This document shows, piece after piece, positions 2,163 to 61,155 of a stretch of DNA of 64,000 bases. Each line of letters begins with the position of its first letter. The stretch's first letter is position 1. Source of the stretch: Verrucomicrobiales bacterium. GTDB lineage: Bacteria > Verrucomicrobiota > Verrucomicrobiia > Limisphaerales > UBA1100. A program made the position numbers and the translations under genes. The notes below the pieces were generated by a model. The model was not told where the DNA came from, did no database searches, and saw only the letters and a program-made list of their open reading frames with translations. The stretch lies in the NCBI GenBank assembly GCA_038139415.1, contig JAYOSV010000012.1, positions 1-64,000 of the forward strand, in the 5' to 3' direction.

Positions 2163-5100
2163 CTACTCCGCCGGAGGTGATTCCTGCCCCTCGGCCGGCG
2201 GCGCTTGTCCTTCGGACTGTTGCTGGGCTTGAGCCGTTTTAAGCTGGTCCAAAATCTGTTGGATCAGTTCATCGCTGTTCTGCGTCATTTGTTGACTGAC
2301 ATCCACCACCACTTCGCTCGGCTGCGACTCGCGCAGTTGCCCCTGTAATTCAGTGACTCTCTCCTGATAATTGCCGAACAATGCACCCACCTGTTGCAGT
2401 GCCGTCTGCAGTTGTGCGGCCTGAGCGGAGGCCTGAGATTGGTTAATCGTTTGGGCCAATTGCTGGTTGCTCTGCTGGATGAATTCCATCATGGCCTGTT
2501 GGCGGTCGGCCAACATCTGCTGATTCCCTTCCGCCACCGCAGATGCCTGACTGGATTGTTCCAGATATTTCTCAATCGCCGCGCTGATCGCTTCCATCTG
2601 ATTGGATGAAACGGGAGCCGGCGCACCCTCGACTGCCCCGGCAGTTTCCCCTCCTGCGACCGGAGCATTAGCAGAATTTTCGGCCAATGTTTGGCGAAGT
2701 TTTTCCAGGTCGGCGCTTAACGCACTGGTGTCGATGGTGGTCGTGCGGTCCTTTGAAAGTTCTTCCTTGAGTGTGTCCTGGATCGACTCAAGGCCGCCGC
2801 TGAAGAGGGACAGCTGGCTAACCACGCGGCTGACGGGGTCGTTTTGGTCGCCGCCCTGCAGATATTGGTTCCGGCCGAAGGTGCGCTTAATTTCCTCCCA
2901 ACGCTCCGCTTCCTCCTCGCTCATCACGCCGATGAGTTGCTTAAACTTGAGGAAGTTTGCTTCGGCGCCGGTGGTGAGCGTTTGACTCTCACCCTTGTAA
3001 TGATCGAGCACGAGATCCATCAACTCCTGCTCGTTCATCATCGGCAACACCTTTTCGGCGAGACGGTTCATGTTCCGGTAGGAACCCTGCATCTTGAAAG
3101 CCGGCTCCGTACGGAATTCATCGGACTGCCCGGCGCTTTCGATGTAGAGTTGGTTCACCTTCAACACCACATCGCGGAGCGTGATCATCTTCTTGATCAC
3201 TGTGATTAATTCCTCTTGTTCGTTGGCGGAGAAATTACCCTGCAATTCGATGCCCTCGCGCTGATCGGTTTCAGCCATGCGAATAAACGCCTGAATATCC
3301 TTCTGCGCCGCCTTACCAAGCGATTGCAGTGCGGGGTTCGAAGTGATTGCGTTCTCAATGTAACTGCCGGAGAAAGCAGTTTCGCGGCCTTTCATGTCGT
3401 CACCGAGGTTGTAGGTGTCTGCACGGTTGGTGAGCATGTCCGGCACACGGAATTTTTCACCGCTCTCGGTGTAGGGGTTACCAGCCATCACCACCACCAC
3501 GCGGCGACCGCGCATATCGTAGGTCTTCGGCTGGCCGCGCCACACGCCCTCGATCTTGCGCTGGGCATCACACAACGAAATAAACTTCTGTAGAAACTCC
3601 GGATTACAGTGCTGGATGTCGTCCACGTAGATCATCACGTTATCGCCCATCTCAAGCGCGAGGTTGAGCTTCTTGACCTCCTCACGTGCACCAGCATTGG
3701 GAGCCTCCTCGGGATCGAGCGAGGTTACCTCATGGCCAAGCGCCGGGCCGTTGATCTTCATGAAAATCAGTCCCATGCGGTTGGCGAGATATTCCATTAA
3801 GGTGGTCTTACCATATCCGGGAGGAGAGATGAGCAGCAGCAAACCCATGAGGTCCGTGCGCTTGGCATCGCCGGCCGCACCAATCTGCTTGGCAAGGTTA
3901 TCGCCGACAATCGGCAGATACACTTCATCCACCAACTGGTTCCGCACAAAGGATGACAAAACGCGCGGCTCAAATTCATGCAGGCGCAGTGCCTCTTTTT
4001 CAGATTCGATAAGCGCCTGTTTCAACTCCTGATACGCCTCAAAGCGCGGCACCGATTCGCGGGCAAAGCGTCCGAGCTTCTCTTGGAAAGCCAGATAATC
4101 GAACGGATAATTCCCGCCCTCTTCCACTGCATCATGCGCGCCCTGAATACCTTCCAGAACCTGCCCGGTAGCCGCCTTCACCACGGCCTGTTTGTGGAGG
4201 TGGCCGCAGAAAACCAGTCCCGCCACTTCCTCGAGATATTTATTGGCGCCATTACGGTCGAGCAGGAAGCCGCGTACCCAGTCACGAATCAGCTGATAAT
4301 GACTGTGCGGATCCTTCTGAAGCGGTTTCTGCGCCTTGGCAAAATCGCTTTCACGACCTTTCTTCACGAGATGCCGCTCAAACTCCGTGAGCAGACTGTC
4401 GGCCTCTTGGCTGACCACCCAATCGCGGCCGTTGGTGTGTTCGTAGAAGAGATATTCGCCGGCCGGATCCGCATCCTCAGGCGGGAATAAACCGGTCTCT
4501 TCAACGAACGCGGCCACCATGGCACGCAGTTCGGCCACATAATCGGCCTGAGTGGGATCGCCCGGGAAAATTTCGTTACGGGTGGCAAAGCCCTCCAGAC
4601 GGGCGAGCATCATCTTCGCGGCATCCGGATCACAAAATTTATTCCAGAACACCGCCGCACAGGCGCGCGCGCGCGGATAATACCGCGCAAGTTGAAGCGC
4701 ACTTTGAGTGCTAAGCAGTGCCGCTAAAATCTTTTCGGCGTCCTGATCATGGATACCCTTGGTATAGGCCTCCGAATAACGGTCGCCCATGAAGCCCTGC
4801 ACAACCTTCAGGCGTTCCTCGACACTCATCTCCGCCACCTCGGTCATGCGGACGATGCCCTGCTGCTCCAGCTTTTGCCACAACAGGTAGGCGAGATATT
4901 CCGCGCGGTAAACTTCATTATCCTCAGACACCACCGTTTGATCCCACACCTCGCGAGTGGCCAAGAAGGCTTCATCGGTGACTTCATCGAAATATTGCGT
5001 GCCCGTCAGATGCAGATTCTGATCATTGCCGCGTCGCACCATGGTAAGATCCAAAGGCTGTGCGTTGACGGCAAACTTATGTTTTCCGAACTGGATGACA

Positions 5101-7721: not shown

Positions 7722-7730
7722 TTGAGTGAA

Positions 7731-10055
7731 TTATTTGCCGAGTTTGTCGCCGAGGATCGTGCTCGCCAACTCGCTGCCAATTTCCGTGCCGCGCACAGCC
7801 TTTTCGGCCGCCCGCATTAGGCCGCGAAGCGAGTTGTCTTCGGTCTTGGATACCATGGAAGCCAACAACGCGGAGATAGTGAGATTCTTCACATCCTCAC
7901 TCTTCAGGCCAGATGCCTTGATCCAGCCGGCCAATTTATTTTTCAGATGATCCGGGTCGCCGTTGAAGAAGGTGTTCTTCACGTCAGTGATGGTCTGGCT
8001 GTTATCGACCAGGCGATCGACTACCTTACCTTGGCTCACGGAGGAGACCACACGGTTGAAGAAGTCCTGCTCGCCGCCCACCAGATCGATGTTTGCGCTC
8101 TTGAGCGCCTCGCCCAACACGCGGGCCTGAGCATCGGCAATATCCTTCTTGATATTGATATCGGCCAACTCCACATCCTTGTCCTTGTCCAATTGCAGAC
8201 GGAATTCCTCGTGGTCCTGCGAAGCCTTGTTGAACAGCTCGATAGCCTTGGCCATCTCGGTTTTGGCCAACGCCTCGGCGAGGCCCAACTTCTCGGCGCC
8301 CTGCGCCTCGGCCAGACGGATCGCTTCCACGGATTTACCCTCGGCCACACCCTTCGATTCGATGGCCACACCTTCCGCAGTGCCCTTGGCAGCGATGCCT
8401 TTCGCTTCGCCCTCGCCTTCGGCAGCCCTGGCTTTACCAGAAGCTTGGCCCTGTGCCTCAATCACGGCGGCTTCAGCTAAACCCAAGGCCTTCTCGGCAT
8501 CGGCATCGACCGTCTTAGCCTCGGCCTTGGCCTTCATCACATTGGCCTCGGCATAACCGGCAGCTGCCTGCATGGCTGCCGTTCCTTCGGCTTCCTGTTG
8601 CATGGCGTGGTTGCGTTTCTCACTCGCCTTGGCTTCCGCATCGGCAGTGATTTGAATTTGCTCGGCCGTTTGCTCGGCTTCCAGCTTGTCGGCTTCCGCC
8701 TTAGTCACATCCTCGTACTTGAGGGCATCAGCTTTCTTTTGACGTACATCATAATCGGCTTGCGCGGCAATGAGGTCGCGTTTTTGGTCCGCTTCGGCGC
8801 GGGCCTCGGCCTCGATGTTCAACACGCGGCGCGCCCGTTCGGCGCTCATGTCCGCCTCCACATCCAGTCGTTGCTGGTGCTGGGTGGTCACTTCCTTTTC
8901 CTTGGCCTCCAAACCGGCCTTGCTCTCGGCAACGCCAAACGCGGCGGCGATGATGGCCGCTTCCTTCTCTTGCGTCGATAACCCCACACGGCGTTCACGA
9001 TCGACCTCAGCTTGCTGACCGGATTCCTTTTTCTCCTCCTCAAGTCGCAGCAAATCCTTGTCCAAATTCACGCGTGCTTCCTGCACCGATCGATCCTTTT
9101 GCACCGTGCGAACTTCCACATCCTCTTCAGTGCTCAACCGGGCATTCTCGGATTCTTTCCGTGCCTCCTGAACGCTCTTTTCAGTTATGGCAGACTCTTC
9201 CGCCTTGGTCACCTCCACCTCACGAGTTTGTGCAGCCAAGTGCTGCTCGTTTGTCCGATCCAATTCGCGCTGAGCAACCTCTGTCTCAATATCCTTGTTC
9301 TTGATCTGCAGCTCCATGTTCCGGTTCTGCTCATTGATTGTCTCTTGCTTGGCGGTATTCTGCTTGTTGATCTCTTCGTCCCTTTGAACTTTGCGCTGGT
9401 TCTCTTTCTCCTCCATTTGAGCAGTCAACTCCACAATCTTTGCCCGACCTACGGAGTCCAGCACGTTATTGGGGTCATGAGCATCCAATGGGGTTTGCTC
9501 GAGGTAATCAATCGCCACGTCCTCCAGCGTATAACCGTTTAGATCGCTGCCAATCGTATCGATGATCTCCTGACGGAACGGAATACGATCGGTGTACAGC
9601 TTCTCGAACTGCATCTTCTTACCGGCCGACTTGAGTGCCTCGGAGAACTTCGCCTCAAACAACTGCTTGAGCAGCTCAATTTCCGATGCCCGCTCGCAAC
9701 CCACCTGTGTCGCAACGGTTTTGATATCGTGAAAATCAGCTTTTTTCTGGCCATCTATCTTGGTCTTCTCGTCATTCACGCGCACGTAAAAGACCACTTC
9801 AATATCCGCGCGAATGTTATCCTCACAAATCAACCCGTCCTTACCTTTACGGACAACCTCCAACTTTTTCACAGAGAGATCCATGATCTGCAACTGCTGA
9901 AGAATCGGAATACGCAGCATCCAGTCTTTCTTAACCATGATACCACCGAAACCAGTTCGCACGCCGGCCTCACCCGGCTTGATTTTCTTAATAAATAGAA
10001 ACAGACTGATCACGGTGAAAAACAACAAACCAGCGATAATAAGGGCAGGGATCAT
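7731..10055 (-). CDS. Flotillin-family SPFH/band-7 membrane protein (YqiK/FloT-like), unusually long (774 aa)
   Basis: N-terminal TM helix (IIAGLLFFTVISLFLFI). SPFH domain. Long Ala/Glu/Lys-rich coiled coil with EA repeats. Flotillin-type C-terminal region. ATG at 10055 preceded by a strong SD (taggagtattaatATG). Confidence 0.85.
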   Translation of the reverse strand: MIPALIIAGLLFFTVISLFLFIKKIKPGEAGVRTGFGGIMVKKDWMLRIPILQQLQIMDLSVKKLEVVRKGKDGLICEDNIRADIEVVFYVRVNDEKTKIDGQKKADFHDIKTVATQVGCERASEIELLKQLFEAKFSEALKSAGKKMQFEKLYTDRIPFRQEIIDTIGSDLNGYTLEDVAIDYLEQTPLDAHDPNNVLDSVGRAKIVELTAQMEEKENQRKVQRDEEINKQNTAKQETINEQNRNMELQIKNKDIETEVAQRELDRTNEQHLAAQTREVEVTKAEESAITEKSVQEARKESENARLSTEEDVEVRTVQKDRSVQEARVNLDKDLLRLEEEKKESGQQAEVDRERRVGLSTQEKEAAIIAAAFGVAESKAGLEAKEKEVTTQHQQRLDVEADMSAERARRVLNIEAEARAEADQKRDLIAAQADYDVRQKKADALKYEDVTKAEADKLEAEQTAEQIQITADAEAKASEKRNHAMQQEAEGTAAMQAAAGYAEANVMKAKAEAKTVDADAEKALGLAEAAVIEAQGQASGKARAAEGEGEAKGIAAKGTAEGVAIESKGVAEGKSVEAIRLAEAQGAEKLGLAEALAKTEMAKAIELFNKASQDHEEFRLQLDKDKDVELADINIKKDIADAQARVLGEALKSANIDLVGGEQDFFNRVVSSVSQGKVVDRLVDNSQTITDVKNTFFNGDPDHLKNKLAGWIKASGLKSEDVKNLTISALLASMVSKTEDNSLRGLMRAAEKAVRGTEIGSELASTILGDKLGK

Positions 10056-12486: not shown

Positions 12487-14124
12487 TCAATTCCACGCCG
12501 GCTTGTGAATATGCGGCCGGATGCGGATCACAAAGAGCGCCATGGTCAACACGGCCACCAGCACCACGAGATAAAAGATCTCCTGCGCGCCCACGCCCAA
12601 GTTGCGCAACAGATAGAACAGGCCAATGCCACCGACTTCCAGCACGGCATCAATGGCGTTGGAAGCAGCAATGTACTGACCTCGTGAATCCATTGGCGAC
12701 AGTTTTTGCAGCAAAGCCTGCAATGGCGTCACGTACAAACCCGCACTGGCTCCGACAACGAAGAGGCATCCCACCACAAACCAAAGATCGTTCCGGCGCG
12801 ATTCCACAGGCACGGCCACCAAGCCAGTCGGTTTCTCGCTGTCACTCTCGGTGAGATGATAAAATTCAGTGCCGTTGCTGTCCTTTTCCGGTGACACTTT
12901 TCGGTTCCGGAAGGTGTCCAGATAAGCCGAGGAAATCACCATGGCCTGATATTGACCGTCCTGCACATCCTGCAGGCGTTGATCAAGCGCAATGCCCTCC
13001 TTGTGGAGCTGCAGGTCGCCGCGCACTTCAGTAAGCCGTTCCTTGGAGCGTTCCAGATAATAACTCACCTTCGCCCCTTCCGGCAGACCGGCCAATCCCT
13101 GAGCCGCTCGTTGTTCATCGGCCGAATGGATTACCACATAACTGGACGGTGCCAGCGCGAGCAACAATCCCGCTACGCCAAACCCAATGCCTCCGGCCAG
13201 AATCAGGCGCGGTTGAATACCGCCTCTGGAAATGATGCCCGCAAATACGCTCCCCACCGCGATGGACACGCCAATGGTGCCAAACAGATACATGCTCACT
13301 TTCTTTTCGGAAATGCCCAACACCAGCGTGTAATCCGCCAGAATAAGCATCACCAGATAAGCCAGCAGATAAAACATCGCCTTTAGAACACACACGACCA
13401 AGATGGGTGTCTCGCCGCCGAGCATTTTGCGGATGGTTTGGATATAGGGCGCGAAAAAATCCCACTGCATCTTCATGCGCGGCGCACTAGCTGGAAGTGT
13501 CGGCATTTGTTTCGCCGACAACAAACCAAGTACCGCGAAGATCAACAGTGCCACGCCAGGCAGCCAGAGCTTGCCGTCCGGCGCACCATCGGCCGCGGAG
13601 CCTCGATAGGCCTCGTACAACGCACCGCCCACCACCACGGCAAGGATGGCCGCCACGTTGGTGAGCATGATGATGGTGGCGTTGGCCATGCTGATTTTGG
13701 AATCCGCCACCAATTCGGGGATCACCCCGTACTTGGCCGGCCCAAAGAATGCACTCTGGGTCCCGAGCAAAAACATCGCCAGCAACGCCAACCAAACGTT
13801 GTTAAAATAAAAGCCAGCGAACGCCACCACCACGATCAGGAACTCCGCCTGTTTTACCCGCAGGGTCACCAGCTGTTTACTGTAACGATCTGCCAACTGT
13901 CCGGCGATGGCGCCAAACAAGAGAAACGGCATCACCAGCGCTATGGCCACCCAGCTATGACCTCCCTCCCCCAGCACGCCACTCCACACGCCGGCCGCGG
14001 CCAAGCCAAAGGTGAGCACCTGCTTCAGCAGGTTGTCATTTACCACGCCAAAGAATTGGGTGATGACCAGCGACAAGAATCCGCGATTGGCCAGCGGACG
14101 GGATGGATTGTCGGCGTCACTCAT
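12487..14124 (-). CDS. MFS transporter, lysophospholipid transporter LplT-like, with a ~110-aa cytoplasmic insertion
   Basis: 12-TM MFS architecture. Immediately downstream of a PlsC-family acyltransferase, matching the Aas/LplT arrangement. Hydrophilic insert LAPSSYVVIHSADEQRAAQ...RRNDLWF between TM bundles. Confidence 0.65.
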   Translation of the reverse strand: MSDADNPSRPLANRGFLSLVITQFFGVVNDNLLKQVLTFGLAAAGVWSGVLGEGGHSWVAIALVMPFLLFGAIAGQLADRYSKQLVTLRVKQAEFLIVVVAFAGFYFNNVWLALLAMFLLGTQSAFFGPAKYGVIPELVADSKISMANATIIMLTNVAAILAVVVGGALYEAYRGSAADGAPDGKLWLPGVALLIFAVLGLLSAKQMPTLPASAPRMKMQWDFFAPYIQTIRKMLGGETPILVVCVLKAMFYLLAYLVMLILADYTLVLGISEKKVSMYLFGTIGVSIAVGSVFAGIISRGGIQPRLILAGGIGFGVAGLLLALAPSSYVVIHSADEQRAAQGLAGLPEGAKVSYYLERSKERLTEVRGDLQLHKEGIALDQRLQDVQDGQYQAMVISSAYLDTFRNRKVSPEKDSNGTEFYHLTESDSEKPTGLVAVPVESRRNDLWFVVGCLFVVGASAGLYVTPLQALLQKLSPMDSRGQYIAASNAIDAVLEVGGIGLFYLLRNLGVGAQEIFYLVVLVAVLTMALFVIRIRPHIHKPAWN

Positions 14125-14200
14125 GCGCGGGCGACAGTAACGGCTCCGGCATGAAGCATCTAATTGATTCGGGGAGAGTAACCATCAATTCAGTCGATAC

Positions 14201-15442
14201 TTAAAAGGACTCTCCACCCGGGTGAGAATTGTGGGCATTTATGTGATCCAGACCTGCCTGCACCCCGGCCTCGAATTGATCGGTCAAAGCCGCCATGGCC
14301 AGACGCGGCTTGGCGGCCGCCGCTAGTTGTTCGGACACACAAATCAGATCGCCAAAGCGGACGGTCACCGCGCGATCCGCATAGGCCGGAAACGCCCGCG
14401 AGTACAGGTCCTCCCGCATTTTCTCGATCGTTTCCCCCACTCGATCGAGCGTGGGTTTTTCACTGAGATAATTACCTGCATAGCTGAGAATCCGAAATGC
14501 AATGATCGCTTCATCGGCCCAACCGGCCGCGACCGCGTGATCAATCTCTCGATCCGGATCGGAACGCACCTTGTGAATCTCGCGACGTACGGCGCGGATG
14601 CGATCCATTAGGTCGTCGTCCTCATTGGTGTTCAACCCCATCTTCGCCTCAAGTTGATTCAAAATCTGTCGGGCGCATTGCTGTAGAAGCTTGGGCAGAT
14701 CGCTATAATCCGGATTCGGCGGCAGGAACCCACGCTGAGAAAGGTTACGTCGGATCATCGCCACGCCCACGGAATGCACCTGGGGAACGATACCATCTTC
14801 ACCGGAAATCTCTACCCCGAGCTGCTCAGCCATGTGATCTAGCGTCTCCCGCAAAGTCACCCTAGCATCGGTGGTGTGAGTAGCCTTAATTGAAACTGGT
14901 ACGGCAAAAATCCGACCGGCATCCTTCATCCCCTGTTGCGCCTTCATCGCGATGTACGCCGGACCTTCCAGAAACGGCGTCACGCGGTCGTTCATGAAAT
15001 ACACGTTACCCTCGGGAAATACCGTGAGCGCGTATCGGCCATCAATCACCGTGGCAATAGCGTCCTTCATGGACCGCCGATCACTCCCATCTCGATTGAC
15101 CGAGAAAGCCCCCATGCGCTGCATCATCCATCCCTGCGCCCGATTGCGCAGAAATACATCGTACGCTGCCATGAAAATGGACCACACCCCGACCTGCCGA
15201 CAGGCCTCAGCCATAATCATTGGATCACTATGCGTAGAATGGTTCGGCAACAACACCACCCGCGCGCCGTGTTCGCGCTGAATATTCTGCAACGGCCCGG
15301 CATTCTCCACCGTCACCGATTGGATCCGATGCTCCGGCCCTGCTAACAGATATCTCCGAGACCACCACTCCCCCAGCCAAGCAATCAGCCGGTTGGGTTT
15401 GGGCGGGAAATATTCGTAAGGCTGGTCGCTAAACTGCAGCAT
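14201..15442 (-). CDS. PlsC-family lysophospholipid acyltransferase (Aas-like) with C-terminal extension
   Basis: HxxxxD acyltransferase motif NHSTHSDP. FPEG motif (VFPEGNVY). 413 aa, so roughly 200 extra C-terminal residues. Confidence 0.7.
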   Translation of the reverse strand: MLQFSDQPYEYFPPKPNRLIAWLGEWWSRRYLLAGPEHRIQSVTVENAGPLQNIQREHGARVVLLPNHSTHSDPMIMAEACRQVGVWSIFMAAYDVFLRNRAQGWMMQRMGAFSVNRDGSDRRSMKDAIATVIDGRYALTVFPEGNVYFMNDRVTPFLEGPAYIAMKAQQGMKDAGRIFAVPVSIKATHTTDARVTLRETLDHMAEQLGVEISGEDGIVPQVHSVGVAMIRRNLSQRGFLPPNPDYSDLPKLLQQCARQILNQLEAKMGLNTNEDDDLMDRIRAVRREIHKVRSDPDREIDHAVAAGWADEAIIAFRILSYAGNYLSEKPTLDRVGETIEKMREDLYSRAFPAYADRAVTVRFGDLICVSEQLAAAAKPRLAMAALTDQFEAGVQAGLDHINAHNSHPGGESF

Positions 15443-19327: not shown

Positions 19328-20767
19328 TCACTCGCCCCAGCCTTCGGCCAAACGCACAAGCGTCCGCACGGCCACGCCGCTGGCGCCCGTGCCGCAGTTG
19401 GGTTGCGCCTTGTCCACCCAGCATGTGCCGGCGATGTCCAGATGCGCCCAGGGCGTGCCATCCACAAACTGTTCCAGAAACTTGCCGGCAGTGATGGTCC
19501 CAGCCTTACGATCCGCCGAGGCGTTACGCAGATCGCTCATGTCGCCCTTCATGGCGTCGAGATATTCCGGGTCCATCGGCAACGGCCAGAACCGTTCGCC
19601 GCACTGCCGGCCGCGCAGAGCGATGGCGTCGCCGAGATCCTTGTCGTTGCCCAGCAACGCCACCCGAATACTGCCCAAAGCGACACTCACTGCCCCTGTG
19701 AGCGTGGCGGCATTGACAATGTGCGTCGCGCCCAGACGGGTCGCGTAAGTCAAGGCATCGGCCAACACCAAACGGCCTTCGGCATCGGTGTTGATCACTT
19801 CAATGGTTTTACCGTTTAGCGCGGTGATGATATCGCCCGGGCGGGTGGCGGTGCCGCTGGGCATGTTTTCAGCCATGGCCAACAGGCAACTGACGCGCAC
19901 GCCCGGTTTGAGCCGGCCGATCGCGGTAATGGCGCCAAGCATGGTGCCTGCACCGCCCATATCATACTTCATTTTCTCCATGCCACCAGGCGGCTTGAGC
20001 GAGAGGCCGCCGGTGTCAAAGGTGATGCCTTTGCCGACGAGAAAGAGGTGATCGTTGCTCGTGGGATTTTCGGGCACATAACTCAGGCGCACGAGGCGCG
20101 GCGGACGCACCGAACCTTGCCCCACGGCCAACAGTGCACCGGCACCCATTTCGGAAAGGGCGGTTTCATCGAACACTTCCACTTCCAAACCGGCCGCCGC
20201 GCCTTCCTGCGCGGCCCGCATCGCAAATTCCTCTGGGCCCAAATCGTTGGCGGGAATCTCCACCAACTCGCGGGCGAGATTGATGCCCTGAGCTGTGAGC
20301 TGGCCGCGATCGGCTTCCGCCGGTTCCGCGCCGGTCAGGAGAATAACCTCCTCCACCGGCCACGATTTCTGATCTTTGTAACCACTTGGCCGATGCATAC
20401 CGTAGACCGCACCTTCAGCCATCAGTCGGGCATCCGTGCCTTCTGGCAGGAGAATAGCCACGGACCGACACTTGGCTTTGGCGGCTTGACGCACGGCCTG
20501 ACCGGCGGCGGCAAACCAGTGACGCGGCATCGGCTCGGCACCGACGCCCAAGAGAAAGAGGCGTTGCACGGAGGATTCGGGAACGCGATGGATTAGTGTG
20601 CATTGGCCGGCTTTGCCGGTCCATTCGCCGTTGTCGCGTAGTTCGCCGATTAAACCGCCTAGGCGAGCGTCCAGGGTCGCGTCCGGCGTGGTGCCGGTTG
20701 CCAGCGGAACTGCCAGCGCGTCAATGTCGAGTTCCTCCCAGTTTCCGGAGTGGATGGTGATTTTCAT
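19328..20767 (-). CDS. pepA: Leucyl aminopeptidase (M17 family)
   Basis: M17 signature NTDAEGRLVLADAL. Overall cytosol-aminopeptidase layout. The start overlaps the stop of the upstream acyltransferase gene (ATGA). Confidence 0.9.
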   Translation of the reverse strand: MKITIHSGNWEELDIDALAVPLATGTTPDATLDARLGGLIGELRDNGEWTGKAGQCTLIHRVPESSVQRLFLLGVGAEPMPRHWFAAAGQAVRQAAKAKCRSVAILLPEGTDARLMAEGAVYGMHRPSGYKDQKSWPVEEVILLTGAEPAEADRGQLTAQGINLARELVEIPANDLGPEEFAMRAAQEGAAAGLEVEVFDETALSEMGAGALLAVGQGSVRPPRLVRLSYVPENPTSNDHLFLVGKGITFDTGGLSLKPPGGMEKMKYDMGGAGTMLGAITAIGRLKPGVRVSCLLAMAENMPSGTATRPGDIITALNGKTIEVINTDAEGRLVLADALTYATRLGATHIVNAATLTGAVSVALGSIRVALLGNDKDLGDAIALRGRQCGERFWPLPMDPEYLDAMKGDMSDLRNASADRKAGTITAGKFLEQFVDGTPWAHLDIAGTCWVDKAQPNCGTGASGVAVRTLVRLAEGWGE

Positions 20768-21432
20768 AATGCTTCTTGGTCGGGGCCGGGCTCGATCTGA
20801 GCGATGGCGTGCAGTAGATCGGTGGCGGCCTGTTTATAGATTTCCTTCAGGCGATCCTTGTCCTTCGTCTGTTTTGCCTCGGCCCGAAGATCGGCGAAGT
20901 CGAGCGGTTCGCCAAACTTTATTTGTACCTGATACGGCCGGGGCAGCCAATGATGCCGCGCGTACGCCTCGTAGGCCCCGAATAATTTGATAGGCACAAC
21001 CGGCGCGGTACTCTTGATAATGATCAGCCCGATCCCCGGCTGCGGGGCGCGGATTTGGCCGGTGGGCGAGCGGGTGCCTTCGGGATACATGATCACCGCA
21101 TCGCCACTGCGCAGGCGGGAGAGGAACGTCTTCAGCCCGCGACCGGTTCCAGTTTGATCCACTGGAATGACGCGCCAACTGCGCAGTATGCGGCCGCCCA
21201 AGGGCACGTTGAAGGCACTCTCACGTGCCAACCCCACGACCATGCGTTCCAACGCGCTGACGACATAAACCGGATCCAGATAACTGACGTGGTTCGAGGC
21301 GAGGATCACTCCGCCCTTTGCCGGCACTCGCTCGCGATGGAGCACTTTCCAGCGAAACCAAATCCGGAAGAACATGCCAAATGTGAACCGGGCGAAACGA
21401 TACGAAAGCGTTGTCTCGGTTGGCTCAGGCAT
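20764..21432 (-). CDS. 1-acyl/alkyl-sn-glycerol-3-phosphate acyltransferase (PlsC/AGPAT family)
   Basis: HxxxxD motif NHVSYLDP and YPEGTRS motif. The start is set at MPEPTETT; the ORF-track 54-aa N-terminal extension overlaps the upstream gene and is rejected. Confidence 0.75.
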   Translation of the reverse strand: MPEPTETTLSYRFARFTFGMFFRIWFRWKVLHRERVPAKGGVILASNHVSYLDPVYVVSALERMVVGLARESAFNVPLGGRILRSWRVIPVDQTGTGRGLKTFLSRLRSGDAVIMYPEGTRSPTGQIRAPQPGIGLIIIKSTAPVVPIKLFGAYEAYARHHWLPRPYQVQIKFGEPLDFADLRAEAKQTKDKDRLKEIYKQAATDLLHAIAQIEPGPDQEAL

Positions 21433-21437
21433 GGCTG

Positions 21438-22250
21438 CTATTCCGTTTTGCCCTGCCCGCTGACCTTGCCACGCACCTTGCGGCGCAATAGGCCCGGCCA
21501 AAGCAGTTTTAGCCAGGGCACCAACCGCAGCTTGGCGGGCACCACCAATTCCCGATCCCGTCGACGCAACGCCTCGAGTACGGCCAACGAACATTCCTCG
21601 GCAGAAATGGATTCACTCGTGTGCGAGCGTCGACCGTCGCCGACCAGCGAGCCATCGGCCGAACAGGCATTGGCGCGCAGTTGGGTACCGCGTATCCAGT
21701 GCGGGTGCACGGTGAGCACGTTAATGCCCGTGCCTTCCAGGTCGTAGCGCAACGCCTCGCAAAAGCCTTCCAGCGCATGCTTACTAGCCACGTAACCTGT
21801 GTGGCTCGGCACGCCCATGCGACTTTGGATGCTGGCGATCGCGGCGAATTGGCCGCGACTCTTCTTGAGATACGGCAGGGCATGATGCATGCCGTGCACG
21901 GCTCCAAGATAGTTTACCTCCATTAACCGGCGGAAAATACTCAGGTCCTTCACTTCTTCAAACGGCGCCCACATGCTGAGGCCGGCGTTGGAGAGATACA
22001 GGTCCACTCCGCCAAATCGATTGACCGCGGCCTCCACCAAGGCGCCGCAATCCTCGGGCTGGGTGACATCGCCGATTACCGGGAGTGCTTCGCCGCCGGC
22101 TTCGTTGCAGATCTTGGCGGTTTCCTCCAACTCCGCTGCCTGGCGTCCGTGCAGCACGCAGTGTGCGCCACAGGACGCGAAGTCGCGCGCCAGTTGGCGG
22201 CCGAGGCCTGAGGAGGCTCCGGTGATTATGACGGTTTGACCGGCAAACAT
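21438..22250 (-). CDS. Short-chain dehydrogenase/reductase (SDR); candidate acyl/alkyl-DHAP reductase
   Basis: TGASSGLG cofactor motif. YxxxK (YVASK). The start overlaps the AGPS stop by 1 nt. Confidence 0.8.
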   Translation of the reverse strand: MFAGQTVIITGASSGLGRQLARDFASCGAHCVLHGRQAAELEETAKICNEAGGEALPVIGDVTQPEDCGALVEAAVNRFGGVDLYLSNAGLSMWAPFEEVKDLSIFRRLMEVNYLGAVHGMHHALPYLKKSRGQFAAIASIQSRMGVPSHTGYVASKHALEGFCEALRYDLEGTGINVLTVHPHWIRGTQLRANACSADGSLVGDGRRSHTSESISAEECSLAVLEALRRRDRELVVPAKLRLVPWLKLLWPGLLRRKVRGKVSGQGKTE

Positions 22251-23986
22251 CAGTTACCCTTCTTGAAAGATTGAATGACCTCTTCGGTCAAGCCCCATTC
22301 GGCCAACGGATGTTCGCCCGGGATGATCTTGCCGGGGTTCATGACCCCATTGGGGTCCAGCCCATTCTTTAGGGACGCCACGGCCTTGACGCCAGTGGGG
22401 GACAGATCCGCCTCGATCCACGGCAGATGTTCGGAACCCACAGCATGGTGATGACTGACCGTGCCGCCATGTTCCATGAAGGAATCTTCCGCGGCTTTCT
22501 TGACGTACAAATATTGATCCAACTCGCGCCCCTCGATCTGCCGGCAACCGAATGTGAAATAGAGGCTCGCGCCGGTGTGGTAGTTATGGCTGATGTGACA
22601 GCCCACCCACGGATCCGCGCCGGTGTCGCGAATGGCTTGGCGAATGTTTTCCAGTGTGCGGGTGTAGAGCGTCAGCAAATTGTCCCAAGTGGTGGCGGTC
22701 TCACTCACATCACCCATCACGCCACGGTCCATAAGATAATCGCGCACATGCGGGAAATCATATTTAGCCTCCTGAAAGGAGCGTCCAGGCCCTTCGCCCA
22801 GGCACACGCCGCCGTGGCGCTTGAAAATGTGGGCGGACTCCCGTCGTTGTTGGTGGAAGGTATCGTAATCCCCCTCACAAGCCGTAGTCATCATGCAGCA
22901 CTGGGTAAAGTCGAATCCCTTGATCGTGCGCAAATACCATTTCAGCGCGGCCCCGATCTGTGCCTTTAAGCCGGTGTCTGGTTTTTTGAATGCCGCACTC
23001 AGAGCCGTTTTGCCCGGATCATTCAACCGCGTGATCACCGGCATGATCCCCATGCGCATGCATGTCTGAATCGCCTTCACGCCGCTTTCGAAATCCGGAA
23101 ACAACCAACCTTCAAACACCTTATATTCCGGCAACCGGTGCACCTGCATGGTGAGCTCGGTAATCACTCCCAGAATTCCCTCACTGCCCACGCATAATCC
23201 GCGCACGTCAATTCCGTTGGAGGAATTCGGCACGGTACGGGTCACGATCGTGCCGCTGGGAGTAACCATGCGCAGAGCGATCACCATGTCCTCAATCTTA
23301 CCATACTTGTCGCTCTGCATGCCGGCCGATCGCGTGGCAACCCAGCCGCCGAGAGTGGAGTGCACAAAGGAATCGGGGAAATGCCCCAGCGTCACGCCTT
23401 CGGCTTCCAGCTGTTCCTCCATGTGCGGCCCGTACACGCCGGGTTGGATGCGGGCGATCAGGGATTTTTTATCCACCTCCAGCACTCGATGCATGCGACA
23501 CATGTCGAGGCTGACAATGAACCGGTTCTCGCGATCCTTGGGTTCCAGGCAGCCGGCGATGTTGGAGCCGCCGCCGAAGGGAATGAGCACCGCGTTGTGC
23601 TCGTGCGCAGCCTTCACGATGGCCACCACGTCCTCTTCACTGGCAGGATACACCACGAGGTCCGGCGCGACATCTACCTGCCCGCGACGCAACCGGAACA
23701 AATCCCGAAACGCCTTACCGGCCGCGTGCACCAAGCGATCCTTCTTGGTGGCGGACAATTGATTGGTCTTTAGCGCGACTTCTAGCGCCGCAGTGAATGG
23801 TCCATTCACCTTGGCCGCCGGTAAATCAACTTCCTCAAAGGAAACCGGTGGCGTGCGATGATCGTCGACCAAGCCCAGCTCACCCTTGAGGTACGGCCAC
23901 AGCTTCGGCTTGTCGGCATCGCTGAAGGTGACGTCTTCGTCGCCCCAGCCCCACCATTTCATGTGCCGCACAGTTGCATCAGCCAT
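22250..23986 (-). CDS. Alkyldihydroxyacetonephosphate synthase (AGPS; FAD-linked oxidase family)
   Basis: N-terminal KWWGWGDEDVTF, matching the AGPS RWNGWGY hallmark. FAD-binding PCMH-type domain. The AGPS-specific catalytic triple-His loop SHHHAVGSEH. The start overlaps the upstream acyltransferase stop by 8 nt. Confidence 0.85.
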   Translation of the reverse strand: MADATVRHMKWWGWGDEDVTFSDADKPKLWPYLKGELGLVDDHRTPPVSFEEVDLPAAKVNGPFTAALEVALKTNQLSATKKDRLVHAAGKAFRDLFRLRRGQVDVAPDLVVYPASEEDVVAIVKAAHEHNAVLIPFGGGSNIAGCLEPKDRENRFIVSLDMCRMHRVLEVDKKSLIARIQPGVYGPHMEEQLEAEGVTLGHFPDSFVHSTLGGWVATRSAGMQSDKYGKIEDMVIALRMVTPSGTIVTRTVPNSSNGIDVRGLCVGSEGILGVITELTMQVHRLPEYKVFEGWLFPDFESGVKAIQTCMRMGIMPVITRLNDPGKTALSAAFKKPDTGLKAQIGAALKWYLRTIKGFDFTQCCMMTTACEGDYDTFHQQRRESAHIFKRHGGVCLGEGPGRSFQEAKYDFPHVRDYLMDRGVMGDVSETATTWDNLLTLYTRTLENIRQAIRDTGADPWVGCHISHNYHTGASLYFTFGCRQIEGRELDQYLYVKKAAEDSFMEHGGTVSHHHAVGSEHLPWIEADLSPTGVKAVASLKNGLDPNGVMNPGKIIPGEHPLAEWGLTEEVIQSFKKGN

Positions 23987-24707
23987 GCAGTTCCTTCATC
24001 TTGCGAATACGTGATTCCATTTCGGTGGTGATGGCCGTGTAGATCGACCGCCCCTTGCCATGTTCCTCGGCAAAACGGTGCGGGTCAATCGCTTCGCCAA
24101 TATAAATTCGCACCCGCGTCGGGCGAATGATTTTCACGCCCTTAGGATAAGCGCGGTGGGTGCCGTCGATATACACCGGCACGATGGGCAGATTTAGCTC
24201 GGTGGCAATCATCGCCGCACCCTTTTTCATGGTCGACATATCGCCGGACTGCGACCGCGTTCCTTCGGGGTAGATGATGATGCTGCGATTCCGGTGCGAG
24301 GTAAATTCCCGGCAAGCCACCATCAACCGCACGATGCTCTCGCGCGACGCACCGCGATCAGCCGGGATCAAGTTCATCAGACGTGAGAGAAAATTGTTCC
24401 GGCTTTTGTTATCGAAAAAATAATCCTTCGCCGCCACCATGCCGTACTGGTCAAAATCCTCCCCGCCGGCATACATCAATGCCGCGCTGTCCATATGACT
24501 GCAGTGGTTGCTGCAAAAAATAAACGGCGCACTGGGTAGGTTCTCCCTTCCCTCCACCTTGGCTGGACACCAGAGATTGAAGAGTGCACGACAGAAGAGC
24601 TCAAAGCACTTGTGCCAAACCGCGGTCATCCCGCGCGGATCACTCTTTAGATACGCGTATTCCGGGTCCAGCTCCGCTTGCTTCAGCTTGTCCTGAAAGG
24701 TCGACAA
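23979..24707 (-). CDS. PlsC-family acyltransferase; candidate DHAP acyltransferase (GNPAT-like)
   Basis: HxxxxD motif NHCSHMDS. YPEGTRS motif. Position immediately 5' of AGPS. Confidence 0.7.
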   Translation of the reverse strand: MSTFQDKLKQAELDPEYAYLKSDPRGMTAVWHKCFELFCRALFNLWCPAKVEGRENLPSAPFIFCSNHCSHMDSAALMYAGGEDFDQYGMVAAKDYFFDNKSRNNFLSRLMNLIPADRGASRESIVRLMVACREFTSHRNRSIIIYPEGTRSQSGDMSTMKKGAAMIATELNLPIVPVYIDGTHRAYPKGVKIIRPTRVRIYIGEAIDPHRFAEEHGKGRSIYTAITTEMESRIRKMKELHG

Positions 24708-24709
24708 CC

Positions 24710-25861
24710 TTATCTCCCGAATTTAGCGTGAGCCTCGGCAAACTCATTGCTGACAATCGCGCCTGCCAATGAAATCTCCAACGCCAGCGCCGAGGCACAA
24801 ATAATTTCCGCCAGTTTACGCGAAGAATACTGCCCCCCCGCGCAGCCTACCAACTGCAGGTTGCCGTGCTGCGCGTTCAAGCGCGTCGCACCGCCCACCG
24901 TGCCGACCGTGAGGCTTGGCATACTAAGTGTGGCATACAAATCTTCCCCGCGTTTCTCATAAGTAGCAATGCCGATGGCGTTCTCCGCCACACAAGCCAC
25001 ATCCTGCCCCAGTGCCAGATACAACGCCGCCAGCGCATTGGCCACGTGCAGGTTCATACCCAGAAGGCCGGCCATTTGTGAGCCGAGATGTTTATCCACC
25101 AACGCCTCCAAAATCTCATCCGCCGAAACCCGCAGCAGCTTTTTTAACACCCGATTGGGCACCTGAAAACTGGCGATCACATGATGCCCTCGCCCCTTCA
25201 TGAGGCTGCGCTGCGCGGGGTTTTTGTCCGCGTTGAAATTACTCTCCACCAGATACCGGTACGGCGTGCCGTTGGAGAGATTCTCCACAATGTACCGGCA
25301 AGCGGCGTCGGTGCTGAGCGTTACCATGTTTTGGCCGGCAGCCTCCGCGGTGTCGTAAATGAAATCGAGAATCACCCGGTTGTGAATGGGGAGTTTATCG
25401 ATGCGCAGCAGCTTGCCGTGGTGCGTGGTGCTCTCGGCCGCCGCCTTGATCTCATCATAATGTACATCAATCTGCTCCATGAACTGGAGTGCCTGCTCGA
25501 TTTCATTAAAGCGAAACACCGGCGCGCGTGACAGCTCCTGCTTCACATGCCGTGTCTTAATGCCGCCGCTGCGGTGCGTGAGATAGAAGCCGCGCGTCAT
25601 AGAAAGTGACAACGTCCCCTCCACCGTGCACAAGGGCACATAAAAATCGCCCTGCGCGTAGGTGCCATCAATCTTGAGTGGACCTGACACACTCTGCGGC
25701 AGGCCCACGAAGCCCACGTGATTTTCGATCAGTCCCTTGAGATTATCCGGTTCATCCAGAGCAAACTCCGGCATCGCGTGCCCTGTCTGCTCCTTCAACC
25801 AAAGACGGCGCGCCTCGGTATCCGCCTGAGTATAGCCCCGCGGTGGTGTGAGTTTATTCAT
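24710..25861 (-). CDS. HMG-CoA reductase family (class I catalytic domain only, soluble) thioester reductase
   Basis: Aligns by eye to class I HMGR blocks: TVEGTLSLSMTRG (≈TTEGCLVASTNRG), AEAAGQNMV (≈GDAMGMNM), ALYLALGQDVACVAEN (≈AIYIACGQDAAQNV), TVGTVGGAT (≈EIGTVGGGT). The catalytic Glu, Lys and Asp equivalents appear present. The C-terminal His region is diverged. First gene of the operon, 2-nt gap to the next. Confidence 0.75.
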   Translation of the reverse strand: MNKLTPPRGYTQADTEARRLWLKEQTGHAMPEFALDEPDNLKGLIENHVGFVGLPQSVSGPLKIDGTYAQGDFYVPLCTVEGTLSLSMTRGFYLTHRSGGIKTRHVKQELSRAPVFRFNEIEQALQFMEQIDVHYDEIKAAAESTTHHGKLLRIDKLPIHNRVILDFIYDTAEAAGQNMVTLSTDAACRYIVENLSNGTPYRYLVESNFNADKNPAQRSLMKGRGHHVIASFQVPNRVLKKLLRVSADEILEALVDKHLGSQMAGLLGMNLHVANALAALYLALGQDVACVAENAIGIATYEKRGEDLYATLSMPSLTVGTVGGATRLNAQHGNLQLVGCAGGQYSSRKLAEIICASALALEISLAGAIVSNEFAEAHAKFGR

Positions 25862-25871
25862 TGTGTTTGGC

Positions 25872-25928
25872 CAAAAATCCCCAAAAAGGGGCCGCCTGCG
25901 TCGTTGGGTTTGTTACAAACAGGCGGCC
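25872..25928 (-). terminator. Rho-independent terminator downstream of the MMPL gene (minus strand)
   Basis: 9-bp perfect inverted repeat GGCCGCCTG / CAGGCGGCC (25890-25898 / 25920-25928). On the minus-strand transcript it is followed by CCCCUUUUUGGGGAUUUUUGG. Confidence 0.55.
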
Positions 25929-60991: not shown

Positions 60992-61155
60992 TCCTGACGC
61001 GCGAAGCGGTCGAGGTACGGCGTCTTCACAATCTGGTTTCCGTAACAACCAATGTCGCCATAGCCGAGATCATCAGCCAGCACGACAATGAATTGGGCGG
61101 GAGATGTTCCGCCACGGTGGCGAAGGTAAACAGGAACAGAAGTAAAATGTTTCAT
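60988..61155 (-). pseudogene. Sulfatase N-terminal remnant (55 codons, then a stop)
   Basis: MKHFTSVPVYLRHRGGTSPAQFIVVLADDLGYGDIGCYGNQIVKTPYLDRFARQD* is a sulfatase signal peptide plus the first conserved block. It stops after 56 codons, where the DJ-1 gene begins on the other strand. Confidence 0.55.

Follow-up and report, generated by a model that had tools for sequence, protein, structure and literature searches.

An HMG-CoA reductase-like protein of the FcrA type as the probable source of fatty alcohol in a bacterial AGPS operon

Alkylglycerone-phosphate (alkyl-DHAP) synthase, AGPS, must be supplied with an alcohol as co-substrate, and the Verrucomicrobiales locus described here raises the question of which of its genes would form that alcohol. 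In the window, by which we mean the whole 64 kb stretch of DNA that was analysed, genes for an HMGR-like reductase, a PlsC-type acyltransferase (AT1), AGPS, a classical SDR and a second PlsC-type acyltransferase (AT2) follow one another in this order on one strand (Table 1). The genes are tightly coupled at the level of translation, with operon junctions of +2, -8, -1, +5 and -4 nt, and the preliminary description of this DNA was right to place the reductase as gene 1 of the operon. The longest AT2 ORF extends to 21594.

Table 1. Coordinates of the operon genes and of the upstream hairpin within the window.
Feature	Coordinates	Strand	Description
Terminator-like hairpin	25873..25928	-	GGCCGCCTG ... 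CAGGCGGCC then CCTTTTTGGGGATTTTT; read from the sequence
HMGR-like reductase gene	24710..25861	-	Operon gene 1; ATG start; 383 aa, catalytic domain only; assigned to the FcrA type
PlsC-type acyltransferase AT1	23979..24707	-	242 aa; TTG start 2 nt past the reductase stop; PF01553, 81 bits
AGPS, alkylglycerone-phosphate (alkyl-DHAP) synthase	22250..23986	-	578 aa; 8-nt overlap of its start with the AT1 stop
Classical SDR	21438..22250	-	270 aa; ATG overlaps the AGPS TGA; adh_short, 156 bits; NF004825, 283 bits, above its cut-off
Second PlsC-type acyltransferase AT2	20764..21432	-	Probably 222 aa, ATG at 21432, 5 nt past the SDR stop; PF01553, 82 bits

Against Dictyostelium ADPS (2uuu) the AGPS of the window scores 445 bits, and against mammalian AGPS (4bby) 311 bits, in both cases over nearly the full length; it contains FAD_binding_4 and FAD-oxidase_C domains, the HHH motif (residues 512-514) and the catalytic Tyr loop, which reads 'NYHTG'. 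Judged from its sequence, it is a true alkylglycerone-phosphate synthase and a close orthologue of the characterised AGPS enzymes. Among solved structures, AT1 is closest to T. maritima PlsC (5kym, 69 bits), a generic PlsC. The upstream MMPL gene and the reductase start codon are separated by a 100-nt gap that holds the terminator-like hairpin. Its stem is present in the computed fold, with a whole-region z-score of only -1.4 and an energy not distinct from that of shuffled sequences, and a simple terminator scan does not list it. The position of the hairpin between the MMPL gene and the reductase hints that the HMGR-like gene may open its own transcription unit. When the operon region was scanned for sigma-70 promoters, no site fell upstream of the reductase, and the total was lower than in shuffled controls.

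The scanned ORFs of the 64 kb window, the operon included, contain no Rossmann-type FAR (PF07993), as the preliminary description had maintained for the operon, and its remark that no other mevalonate gene lies nearby likewise holds for all scanned ORFs of the window. Neither MEP genes nor a wax synthase were found among these ORFs. The operon SDR was weighed as a candidate for forming the alcohol and set aside: with 270 aa it belongs to the classical SDRs and lacks PF07993 and the FAR C-terminal domain, and it also follows AGPS in many of the cassettes described below and fits the alkyl-DHAP reductase step.

The HMGR-like protein matches PF00368 (HMG-CoA_red) over the full length of the profile (330 bits, residues 16-383 against profile positions 3-368), and this is its sole match, with no hit to PF07993 (NAD_binding_4, extended SDR). 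It belongs to class I, scoring 284 bits on TIGR00533 and 30 bits on the class II model TIGR00532, and its closest solved structure is 6hr7, the class I HMGR of M. thermolithotrophicus (263 bits, 37% identity). The domain scan of the reductase found no membrane domain, no N-terminal Lad domain (PF25653) and no carrier domain. The ORF and these profiles bear out the earlier reading of a 383-aa, catalytic-domain-only class I HMGR homologue, and the blocks that had been taken to align to human HMGR (EGTLS..TRG, AAGQNM, LGQDVA and GTVGGAT) do so. An AF2 monomer built from a 12-sequence alignment is of moderate quality (pLDDT 66.5, with active-site loops including residues 205-224 below 50), and a fold search with it returned HMGRs only, at TM ~0.5, which adds nothing to the sequence result. 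The active site of the reductase lies between subunits, and the model is a monomer.

TIGR00533, the NCBIfam equivalog model for canonical class I HMGR, has a cut-off of 441.8 bits, and the reductase scores 283.8 bits, 158 bits under it. All canonical (S-K-L) controls pass (P0234, 508 bits; P0254, 488 bits; P0257, 468 bits), FcrA-type controls score 311-347 bits, and two members of the reductase's own clade, P0096 and P0125, score 287 and 256 bits. Among the nearest representatives of 50%-identity clusters, 143 of 146 show a non-canonical signature. The window protein is almost certainly a member of the FcrA family and not a canonical HMGR. FcrA reduces fatty acyl-CoA and is derived from class I HMGR (Grossi et al. 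2025, ISME J 19:wraf035, PMC11948995). The enzyme from 'Ca. Promineifilum breve' (Pb-FcrA) uses NADPH to convert C14-C18 acyl-CoA to alcohol; it has no activity on HMG-CoA, and simvastatin does not inhibit it (PMC11948995). The activity considered here for the window protein is taken from this literature, where it was measured on a Lad-domain relative.

This assignment is further supported by the catalytic residues and the HMG-binding positions. Positions were mapped to human HMGR by anchoring on K691, with 21 human positions verified. The catalytic set is complete, comprising E81 (human E559), K213 (K691), D287 (D767) and H378 (H866), and these four residues do not vary among 120 homologues or among the clade members (22/22); the preliminary description had already noted that the catalytic Glu, Lys and Asp seem conserved. 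The C-terminal catalytic His region (...VSNEFAEAH) had been read as diverged, which is correct for H861 (Glu, E373) and L862 (Phe, F374) but not for the catalytic His itself, which is kept as H378 and invariant in the family. The C-terminal helix that carries it is present, as in canonical class I HMGR.

Around this catalytic set, several positions have changed. S684 is replaced by Glu (E206), a state shared by 120/120 homologues and 22/22 clade members, and the same column holds nine Glu and one Asp in Lad-type proteins and Ser in 6/6 canonical HMGRs. The Phe at L862 recurs in 22/22 clade members, with Trp in 10/10 Lad-type proteins and Leu in 6/6 canonical HMGRs. M657 is Gln (Gln177) throughout the clade (22/22), K692 is Asn (N214) in 18/22 members, D653E is frequent in the clade, and M655 of human HMGR is Ala in the reductase, a change common to Lad-type proteins. 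The replacement of A556 by Cys78 and K692N are clade-specific changes near the active site and are absent from Lad-type FcrAs. The NADPH motif DAMGMN reads EAAGQN, and the cofactor of the reductase is therefore uncertain.

K735 is one of the HMG-carboxylate ligands of HMGR. The window reductase still has Lys at this position (K257), adjoining a one-residue deletion, and K257 is kept in the Verrucomicrobiales lineage. The column reads C6, K5, M4, I2, S1 and others among the 22 clade members, and K59, L16, C16, I11, M9 and S4 among 120 close homologues; the constraint on K735 is lost at the level of the clade, yet not in the lineage of the window protein. R590 is conserved as R112. The HMG-binding residues to which the preliminary description had drawn attention are thus not fully conserved, S684E, K692N and L862F being changed while K735 and R590 are retained. 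Lad-type proteins share S684E/D, the loss of K735, an aromatic residue at 862, M655A and M657Q. In the Natronomonas pharaonis FcrA, S684 corresponds to Glu360 and L862 to Trp528, and a generally small residue in place of human K735 (which the paper numbers Lys795) is a published criterion for FcrA (PMC11948995). Further FcrA criteria are an elongated hydrophobic pocket with room for an acyl chain of 14 or more carbons and a place within the monophyletic FcrA/putative-FcrA clade, separate from canonical class I HMGRs.

These observations bear on whether the protein could be a genuine HMG-CoA reductase, acting degradatively or making mevalonate for isoprenoids, with lipid genes as its neighbours by chance. 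Such a role is compatible with an HMGR fold that is full-length and has kept its catalytic tetrad, and with the retention of R590 and, in this lineage, of K735; the public annotations of the protein all read hydroxymethylglutaryl-CoA reductase. It is nevertheless argued against by the distance to the TIGR00533 cut-off that canonical controls pass, by the invariant S684E, which places a negative charge at the HMG carboxylate site, by K692N and L862F, which are invariant or nearly so and respectively remove a ligand and add bulk, and by the lack of conservation of K735 across the clade. Bacteria whose HMGR-like homologue is their only one are without the mevalonate pathway according to the FcrA paper (PMC11948995); the window has no mevalonate gene among its scanned ORFs, and AGPS-pathway genes are conserved neighbours in every phylum examined. 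We consider a genuine HMG-CoA reductase very improbable.

Phylogenetic placement relative to bona fide HMGRs points in the same direction. In a neighbour-joining tree of 172 sequences with 200 bootstraps and no class II outgroup, canonical HMGRs split from the rest in 196/200 bootstraps, with the window protein on the non-canonical side, in a distinct clade of Lad-less, AGPS-linked proteins (195/200). Both this clade and the Lad-type proteins are nested within the non-canonical FcrA-type radiation, at ~36-40% identity to each other. A point against the assignment is that the mean distance from the AGPS-linked clade is as great to canonical HMGRs (1.33) as to other FcrA-type proteins (1.28). 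Pb-FcrA (CUS01882.1) and the N. pharaonis FcrA are absent from the tree, in which proteins of Lad architecture (PF25653) are their stand-ins. The biochemically characterised FcrA sits in another sub-clade, the Lad-type one, than the window protein.

AT1 and AGPS(-like) genes lie directly downstream of the reductase at 10/10 genome loci with at least 50% identity, across six phyla, and representatives at 44-53% identity are also linked, whereas the linkage is seen at 0/70 FcrA-type loci at or below 43% identity. An AT1 homologue (38-54% identity) comes right after the reductase at the ten loci and at L001, L004, L086, L088 and L090. An SDR follows AGPS at L001, L004, L006, L009, L010, L013, L015, L086, L090 and L091, and is absent from this place at L005/L007 and L087. 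The phyla that carry the module are Verrucomicrobiota, Planctomycetota, Fidelibacterota/Marinimicrobia, Ignavibacteria, Gemmatimonadota and Gammaproteobacteria. Complete genomes with the cassette include CP065001.1 (Ignavibacteriales) and OZ243038.1 (Ca. Porifericomitaceae). Among the genes listed around relatives of the reductase, the Pfam families for GHMP-kinase, HMG-CoA synthase and IDI are all missing. Within the clade, L003 stands by itself next to a transposase.

A relative with 90% identity has the same block as the window, with a 218-aa gene call at the position of AT2. No AT2 equivalent was found at that position in other phyla, where the weak AT2 matches are the AT1 gene itself; AT2 is lineage-specific and outside the conserved core cassette. 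The MMPL gene, AT2 and pepA were considered as core parts and rejected, being kept in the close Verrucomicrobiales relative only and not in other phyla.

The same neighbourhoods help to weigh a different use of an FcrA-type acyl thioester reductase, in which the substrate would be acyl-ACP or enzyme-bound, or an aldehyde would be released, or the alcohol would go to wax esters, free alcohols or a signalling lipid, with AGPS being supplied elsewhere. Relatives of the reductase occur as fusions with AMP-binding domains, PP-binding domains or both, and the N-terminus of one of them (P0130) is long-chain fatty-acid CoA-ligase-like. The PP-binding carrier fusions, found in the sister clade and in other relatives, suggest carrier-bound substrates in part of the family; the AGPS-linked clade itself, however, has neither a carrier nor a Lad domain. 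The published role of FcrA is in wax-ester synthesis (PMC11948995) and the altered cofactor motif of the reductase would also fit a departure in detail, but the scanned ORFs of the window include no wax synthase, and it is difficult to see why AT1 and AGPS should lie so strictly next to the reductase in six phyla if its product were not the co-substrate of AGPS. Since that co-substrate must be an alcohol, the adjacency also disfavours an aldehyde product. Pb-FcrA, moreover, does not reduce free aldehyde (PMC11948995), which is consistent with the aldehyde being held bound during the four-electron reduction. We regard this group of variants as having an outside chance.

The cassettes also bear on the nature of the acyl group. 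Reduction of another CoA thioester, such as a hydroxy-, branched or dicarboxylic acyl-CoA, would lead to an unusual ether-linked or diol lipid, and it could be read from K692N and Cys78 (A556), which are clade-specific and absent from Lad-type FcrAs, from the retention of K257 in the Verrucomicrobiales lineage, and from the cassettes at L008, L015 and L089, in which the FAD-oxidase partner is strongly diverged, at merely 29-30% identity to the window AGPS. The AGPS of the window, on the other hand, is close to characterised enzymes that take long-chain fatty alcohols. K735 varies freely within the clade, and is therefore unlikely to bind a substrate-defining polar group; no positive evidence points to any such substrate. 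An unusual acyl-CoA substrate thus seems highly unlikely.

We conclude that the reductase is very probably an FcrA-type enzyme with a remodelled pocket, which heads an ether-lipid operon and would convert a long-chain fatty acyl thioester to fatty alcohol. The recruitment of an HMGR relative to acyl-CoA reduction that the preliminary description proposed is supported along three independent lines, by the biochemistry of the FcrA family (PMC11948995), by FcrA substitutions together with the sub-threshold TIGR00533 score, and by synteny across phyla. In the mechanism that we envisage, the HMGR scaffold and its full catalytic set would have been kept and the pocket remodelled at Glu206, Asn214, Phe374 and Gln177, with the constraint on K735 lost across the clade. 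The reductase would carry out a four-electron NAD(P)H reduction of a long-chain acyl thioester, most likely an acyl-CoA, to a primary fatty alcohol, instead of reducing HMG-CoA to mevalonate. AT1, in a GNPAT role, would acylate DHAP, and AGPS would put the fatty alcohol in place of that acyl group, forming 1-O-alkyl-DHAP. The SDR, as a putative acyl/alkyl-DHAP reductase, would reduce the ketone to 1-O-alkyl-glycerol-3-phosphate, and in this lineage AT2 would thereafter act as the sn-2 acyltransferase on the 1-alkyl-G3P. The operon would then do in bacteria what FAR, GNPAT, AGPS and PexRAP do in eukaryotes, except that the place of the Rossmann-type FAR is taken by a reductase derived from HMGR.

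Neither the enzyme class nor the proposal that it is linked to AGPS is new, both being in the literature. The FcrA paper speculates that some FcrAs supply AGPS, and the link in P. breve is loose, the two genes lying nine genes apart (PMC11948995). What is new here is the distinct Lad-less clade and its synteny with the acyltransferase and AGPS, which give the paper's passing suggestion that FcrAs serve ether-lipid besides wax-ester synthesis its strongest genomic backing to date. More broadly, we lean towards the view that this clade is a dedicated ether-lipid alcohol reductase, that the four-gene cassette has spread by horizontal transfer, and that it provides an oxygen-compatible, eukaryote-like route to 1-O-alkyl glycerolipids in at least six phyla. 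Aerobic plasmalogen synthesis in bacteria has been described as largely restricted to Myxococcota (PNAS 2026 e2529738123). AGPS homologues are widespread in bacterial metagenomes, and in Black Sea MAGs they occur in 43/270 Verrucomicrobiota and 49/134 Marinisomatota (PMC11868695). The surveys consulted screened AGPS and ElbD alone, with the HMGR/FcrA neighbour unmentioned. If the broader view is true, bacterial ether-lipid synthesis of the AGPS type is not essentially confined to Myxococcota, and carriers of the cassette are unrecognised sources of environmental monoalkyl glycerol ethers. The 'HMG-CoA reductase' label on the missing alcohol-forming step would be a systematic misannotation that this reading corrects, and an adjacent reductase, acyltransferase and AGPS would be a much more specific genomic marker of ether-lipid capacity than AGPS alone. 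The four-gene cassette is directly testable by heterologous expression.

Compared with known systems, the window protein is closest to FcrA, with which it shares PF00368, the catalytic tetrad, Glu at S684, an aromatic residue at L862, the clade-level loss of constraint on K735, Gln at M657, a sub-threshold TIGR00533 score and the predicted reaction. It differs in having no N-terminal Lad (PF25653) or ACP domain, in carrying Phe and not Trp at 862 and Lys at 735, in the K692N, A556C and frequent D653E of its clade, and in its operon with AT, AGPS and SDR genes, whereas FcrA is associated with WS/DGAT. With canonical class I HMGR (EC 1.1.1.34; human HMGCR catalytic domain 1dq8/1dqa; 6hr7) it shares the fold and the catalytic residues, but it departs from it by S684E, K692N, L862F, M655A and M657Q, by failing TIGR00533, and by an ether-lipid context with no mevalonate genes nearby.

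To the Rossmann-type FARs (FarA/FAR1, AcrB and the ElbD reductase domain), the likeness lies in the predicted overall reaction and in the supply of alcohol for ether lipids or wax esters, without any relationship in sequence or fold. In the M. xanthus AGPS operon, the corresponding position is occupied by a FAR-GNPAT fusion (PMC13012113). As in Myxococcus xanthus MXAN_1676-1675-1674 and the eukaryotic FARAT (Lorenzen et al. 2014; PNAS 2026 e2529738123), a reductase is coupled in the window to a PlsC/GNPAT-type acyltransferase, AGPS and an NAD(P)-dependent reductase, the reductase stop and the AT1 start being 2 nt apart. The reductase of Myxococcus and protists is, in contrast, a Rossmann-type FAR fused to the acyltransferase, and that of the window a separate, unrelated enzyme of HMGR fold; AGPS comes first in the Myxococcus operon, and the reductase first in the window. 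The HMGR-fold reductase appears to be a clear example of non-orthologous replacement, standing where Myxococcus and the eukaryotic FARAT have a FAR module.

The HMGR-like gene encodes a full-length HMG-CoA_red domain (PF00368 at 330 bits in the Pfam profile search) that belongs to class I (TIGR00533 at 284 bits), not to class II (TIGR00532 at 30 bits); the protein has neither a membrane domain nor an N-terminal extension. This agrees with the preliminary description of the ORF as a class I, catalytic-domain-only HMGR homologue, and the sequence blocks quoted there do align with human HMGR. Among solved structures, the closest to the protein is that of archaeal class I HMGR 6hr7 (263 bits, 37% identity). 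The protein nevertheless misses the TIGR00533 equivalog cut-off by 158 bits. We calibrated this threshold on canonical-signature, non-canonical and own-clade relatives: three representatives carrying the canonical S684/K735/L862 signature (human numbering) pass at 468-508 bits, Lad-type (N-terminal domain PF25653), FadD-fused and further non-canonical relatives reach 311-347 bits, and members of the protein's own clade 256-287 bits. Judged by sequence, the window protein is not a canonical HMGR.

On one strand, the gene order runs from the reductase through a PlsC-type acyltransferase (AT1), alkylglycerone-phosphate synthase (AGPS), an SDR and a second acyltransferase (AT2) to an M17 aminopeptidase. 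The successive junctions of +2, -8, -1, about +5 and -4 nt suggest translational coupling. For AT2, the ATG in the table is the most likely start, since a relative with 90% identity has a 218-aa gene call there. PepA, which has no evident function in lipid synthesis, occupies the same position in that close relative (L091). The upstream MMPL gene is also present in L091, is not found beside the cassette (reductase, AT1, AGPS and SDR) in other phyla, and may encode a lineage-specific lipid exporter. Within the gap between the MMPL and HMGR-like genes, a GC-rich hairpin followed by T runs hints that the transcription unit opens with the HMGR-like gene. No mevalonate, MEP, Rossmann-type FAR (PF07993) or wax synthase genes occur among the Pfam-scanned ORFs of the 64 kb window, in line with the earlier remarks that the operon lacks such a FAR and that no other mevalonate-pathway gene lies nearby.

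Coordinates of the operon genes and of other features in the window
Feature	Position	Strand	Remarks
HMGR-like reductase	24710-25861	-	ATG start, 383 aa, PF00368
AT1, PlsC-type acyltransferase	23979-24707	-	operon gene
AGPS	22250-23986	-	445 bits to Dictyostelium ADPS 2uuu, 311 bits to mammalian enzyme; HHH motif intact
Classical SDR	21438-22250	-	operon gene
AT2, second acyltransferase	likely start ATG at 21432	-	operon gene
M17 leucyl aminopeptidase PepA	19328-20767	-	overlaps AT2 stop codon by 4 nt (ATGA)
MMPL/RND-type transporter, 773 aa	25962-28283	-	directly upstream of HMGR-like gene, 100-nt gap
PlsC-type acyltransferase, 413 aa	14201-15442	-	adjoins MFS transporter
MFS transporter, 545 aa	12487-14124	-	adjoins 413-aa acyltransferase
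PF00487 fatty-acid desaturase	56436-57608	-	about 30 kb from operon
PhyH-family dioxygenase	61152-61940	-	about 30 kb from operon
DUF3686/DUF7902/AAA ATPase, 1852 aa, then 774-aa protein without Pfam match	2163-10055	-	unrelated to reductase finding

A residue map anchored on human K691 and checked at 21 positions shows that the family-invariant catalytic residues are retained (E81, K213, D287 and H378, equivalent to E559, K691, D767 and H866). The conserved Glu, Lys and Asp proposed previously are thus in place; the catalytic-His region had been called diverged, which holds for residues one helical turn before the His but not for the His itself. The HMG-binding set, in contrast to the catalytic residues, is not fully conserved when aligned with human HMGR: S684 is replaced by Glu206, K692 by Asn214 and L862 by Phe374, with further changes at M655 (Ala175) and M657 (Gln177). 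The H861 equivalent is Glu373, and the NADPH motif DAMGMN reads EAAGQN.

These changes recall FcrA, a fatty acyl-CoA reductase related to class I HMGR (Grossi et al., 2025, ISME J, PMC11948995). In that study, the 'Ca. Promineifilum breve' enzyme (Pb-FcrA) uses NADPH to turn C14-C18 acyl-CoA into the alcohol, leaves HMG-CoA and free aldehyde unreduced, and is not inhibited by simvastatin. The diagnostics given there are conservation of the catalytic tetrad, Glu in place of S684, a bulky residue at L862, generally small residues at K735, an elongated pocket and a host without the mevalonate pathway. The window protein shows the tetrad, the Glu and the bulky residue, but differs in keeping Lys (K257) at K735. 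This column is unconstrained in the 22-sequence clade set (C, K, M, I, S) and holds K, L, C, I, M or S in 120 close homologues. A true HMGR is very unlikely, given the TIGR00533 threshold, the residue states and the genomic context together.

In a neighbour-joining tree (172 sequences, 375 columns, 200 bootstraps), built without a class II outgroup or named characterised FcrA sequences, the 22 AGPS-linked sequences form one clade (195/200), and canonical HMGRs split from all others (196/200). Rooted on the canonical group, the AGPS-linked clade is nested within the non-canonical radiation; its sister group includes AMP-binding and ACP fusions, and Lad-type proteins are basal. Its mean distances to canonical HMGRs (1.33) and to other FcrA-type proteins (1.28) are about equal. 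The derived residues common to the clade and FcrAs (M655A, M657Q, S684E, K735 loss, H861D/E and an aromatic at 862) argue for common ancestry more strongly than these distances do.

A one-genome-per-species scan gave 80 loci, against which the operon proteins were run by tblastn. In each of the ten loci with 50% identity or more, the reductase is followed immediately, on its own strand, by AT1 and AGPS(-like) genes, and in five of them an SDR comes next; neither AT1 nor AGPS was detected by tblastn within 8 kb at any of the 70 loci with at most 43% identity (among them Alteromonas, Ruegeria, Streptomyces and Runella). The lineages behind the ten loci are Verrucomicrobiales, two Gammaproteobacteria families, Fidelibacterota/Neomarinimicrobiota, Ignavibacteria, Gemmatimonadales and Planctomycetota, plus one uncultured bacterium of unnamed phylum. 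Independent look-ups agree: of four homologues at 58-61% identity, three have the cassette, and 5/5 cluster representatives at 44-53% identity are linked to it as far as contigs reach. The AGPS link of this sub-family is strict, not occasional, which makes an FcrA-type enzyme that uses acyl-ACP or serves another fate possible but less likely. There is no positive evidence for a different thioester substrate.

The cassette-less exception is a Planctomycetota MAG copy (L003 10001-11179, 61% identity), which stands alone beside DDE transposase and toxin-antitoxin-like genes, surroundings consistent with mobility of the reductase gene. In both Neomarinimicrobiota cassettes and one metagenomic contig (L008 10044-11741, L015 9895-11598, L089 1634-3145), the FAD-oxidase partner in the place of AGPS shares only 29-30% identity with the window AGPS, compared with 51-64% elsewhere; the slot is occupied either by an AGPS that has diverged strongly or by another FAD enzyme. 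At L087 6001-8943 (P0122, 48% identity), AGPS (46% identity) directly follows the reductase, with no acyltransferase between and no SDR after; the core pairing can therefore be reductase and AGPS alone.

The most likely reading, held with good confidence, is a four-step ether-lipid scheme. The reductase would transfer hydride to a long-chain acyl-CoA in two steps, as HMGR does with its substrate, and release the fatty alcohol, with thiohemiacetal and aldehyde intermediates remaining bound and H378 protonating the leaving CoA thiolate. AT1 would supply 1-acyl-DHAP, AGPS would swap the acyl group for the alcohol, and the SDR would convert 1-alkyl-DHAP to 1-alkyl-G3P; in the window's lineage, AT2 would then acylate sn-2. 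Gene content, residue states, clade and synteny come from this analysis and the family chemistry from the literature; the substrates of the reductase, AT1 and SDR, and the cofactor, are those we infer. The suggestion that an HMGR paralogue was recruited to turn acyl-CoA into fatty alcohol is supported by residues, threshold, FcrA precedent and AGPS synteny.

Elsewhere in the window, the 413-aa PlsC and 545-aa MFS pair (12487-15442, -) resembles pairs of lysophospholipid transporter and re-acylation enzyme, and, lying about 5 kb from the operon, may by analogy form a second unit for lipid remodelling. The Pfam scan assigned neither the desaturase nor the dioxygenase to a CarF/PEDS1-type family; the window thus offers no evidence of conversion of alkyl to vinyl ether (plasmalogen).

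An independent hint at function comes from fusions: relatives join the reductase domain to modules that activate fatty acids (AMP-binding, either alone or together with a phosphopantetheine carrier), and one has an N-terminus resembling long-chain fatty-acid CoA ligase. Many FcrA-type reductases (cluster representatives P0138, P0150, P0142, P0161, P0215) carry a C-terminal APH/EcKL/choline-kinase-like phosphotransferase domain, some with N-terminal AMP-binding and ACP modules as well. A kinase joined to a reductase that forms an alcohol suggests phosphorylation of this product in these relatives; the accessible portion of PMC11948995 does not mention this fusion. Other architectures join the reductase domain to an N-terminal PilZ domain of c-di-GMP-binding type (P0126, 741 aa) or to DUF3419 (P0142, 1109 aa).

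By its sequence features, the window enzyme is best filed as a member of the known FcrA kind, in a distinct Lad-less, AGPS-operon-linked clade. The FcrA paper (PMC11948995) also raises the possibility that certain FcrAs supply ether-lipid synthesis, an AGPS lying nine genes from Pb-fcrA, so that enzyme class and ether-lipid idea are both already published. What this analysis adds is the four-gene cassette, conserved in six phyla, of which we found no description in the literature searched; with it, the passing suggestion of the FcrA paper becomes a sharply testable prediction. In the Myxococcus xanthus AGPS operon, a Rossmann-type FAR is fused to a GNPAT-like acyltransferase ('FARAT', widespread in protists too; PMC13012113). 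The window operon likewise pairs a reductase with an acyltransferase, the genes being 2 nt apart, but its reductase has the HMGR fold, is unrelated to the Rossmann-type FAR and by this analogy looks like a non-orthologous replacement of it.
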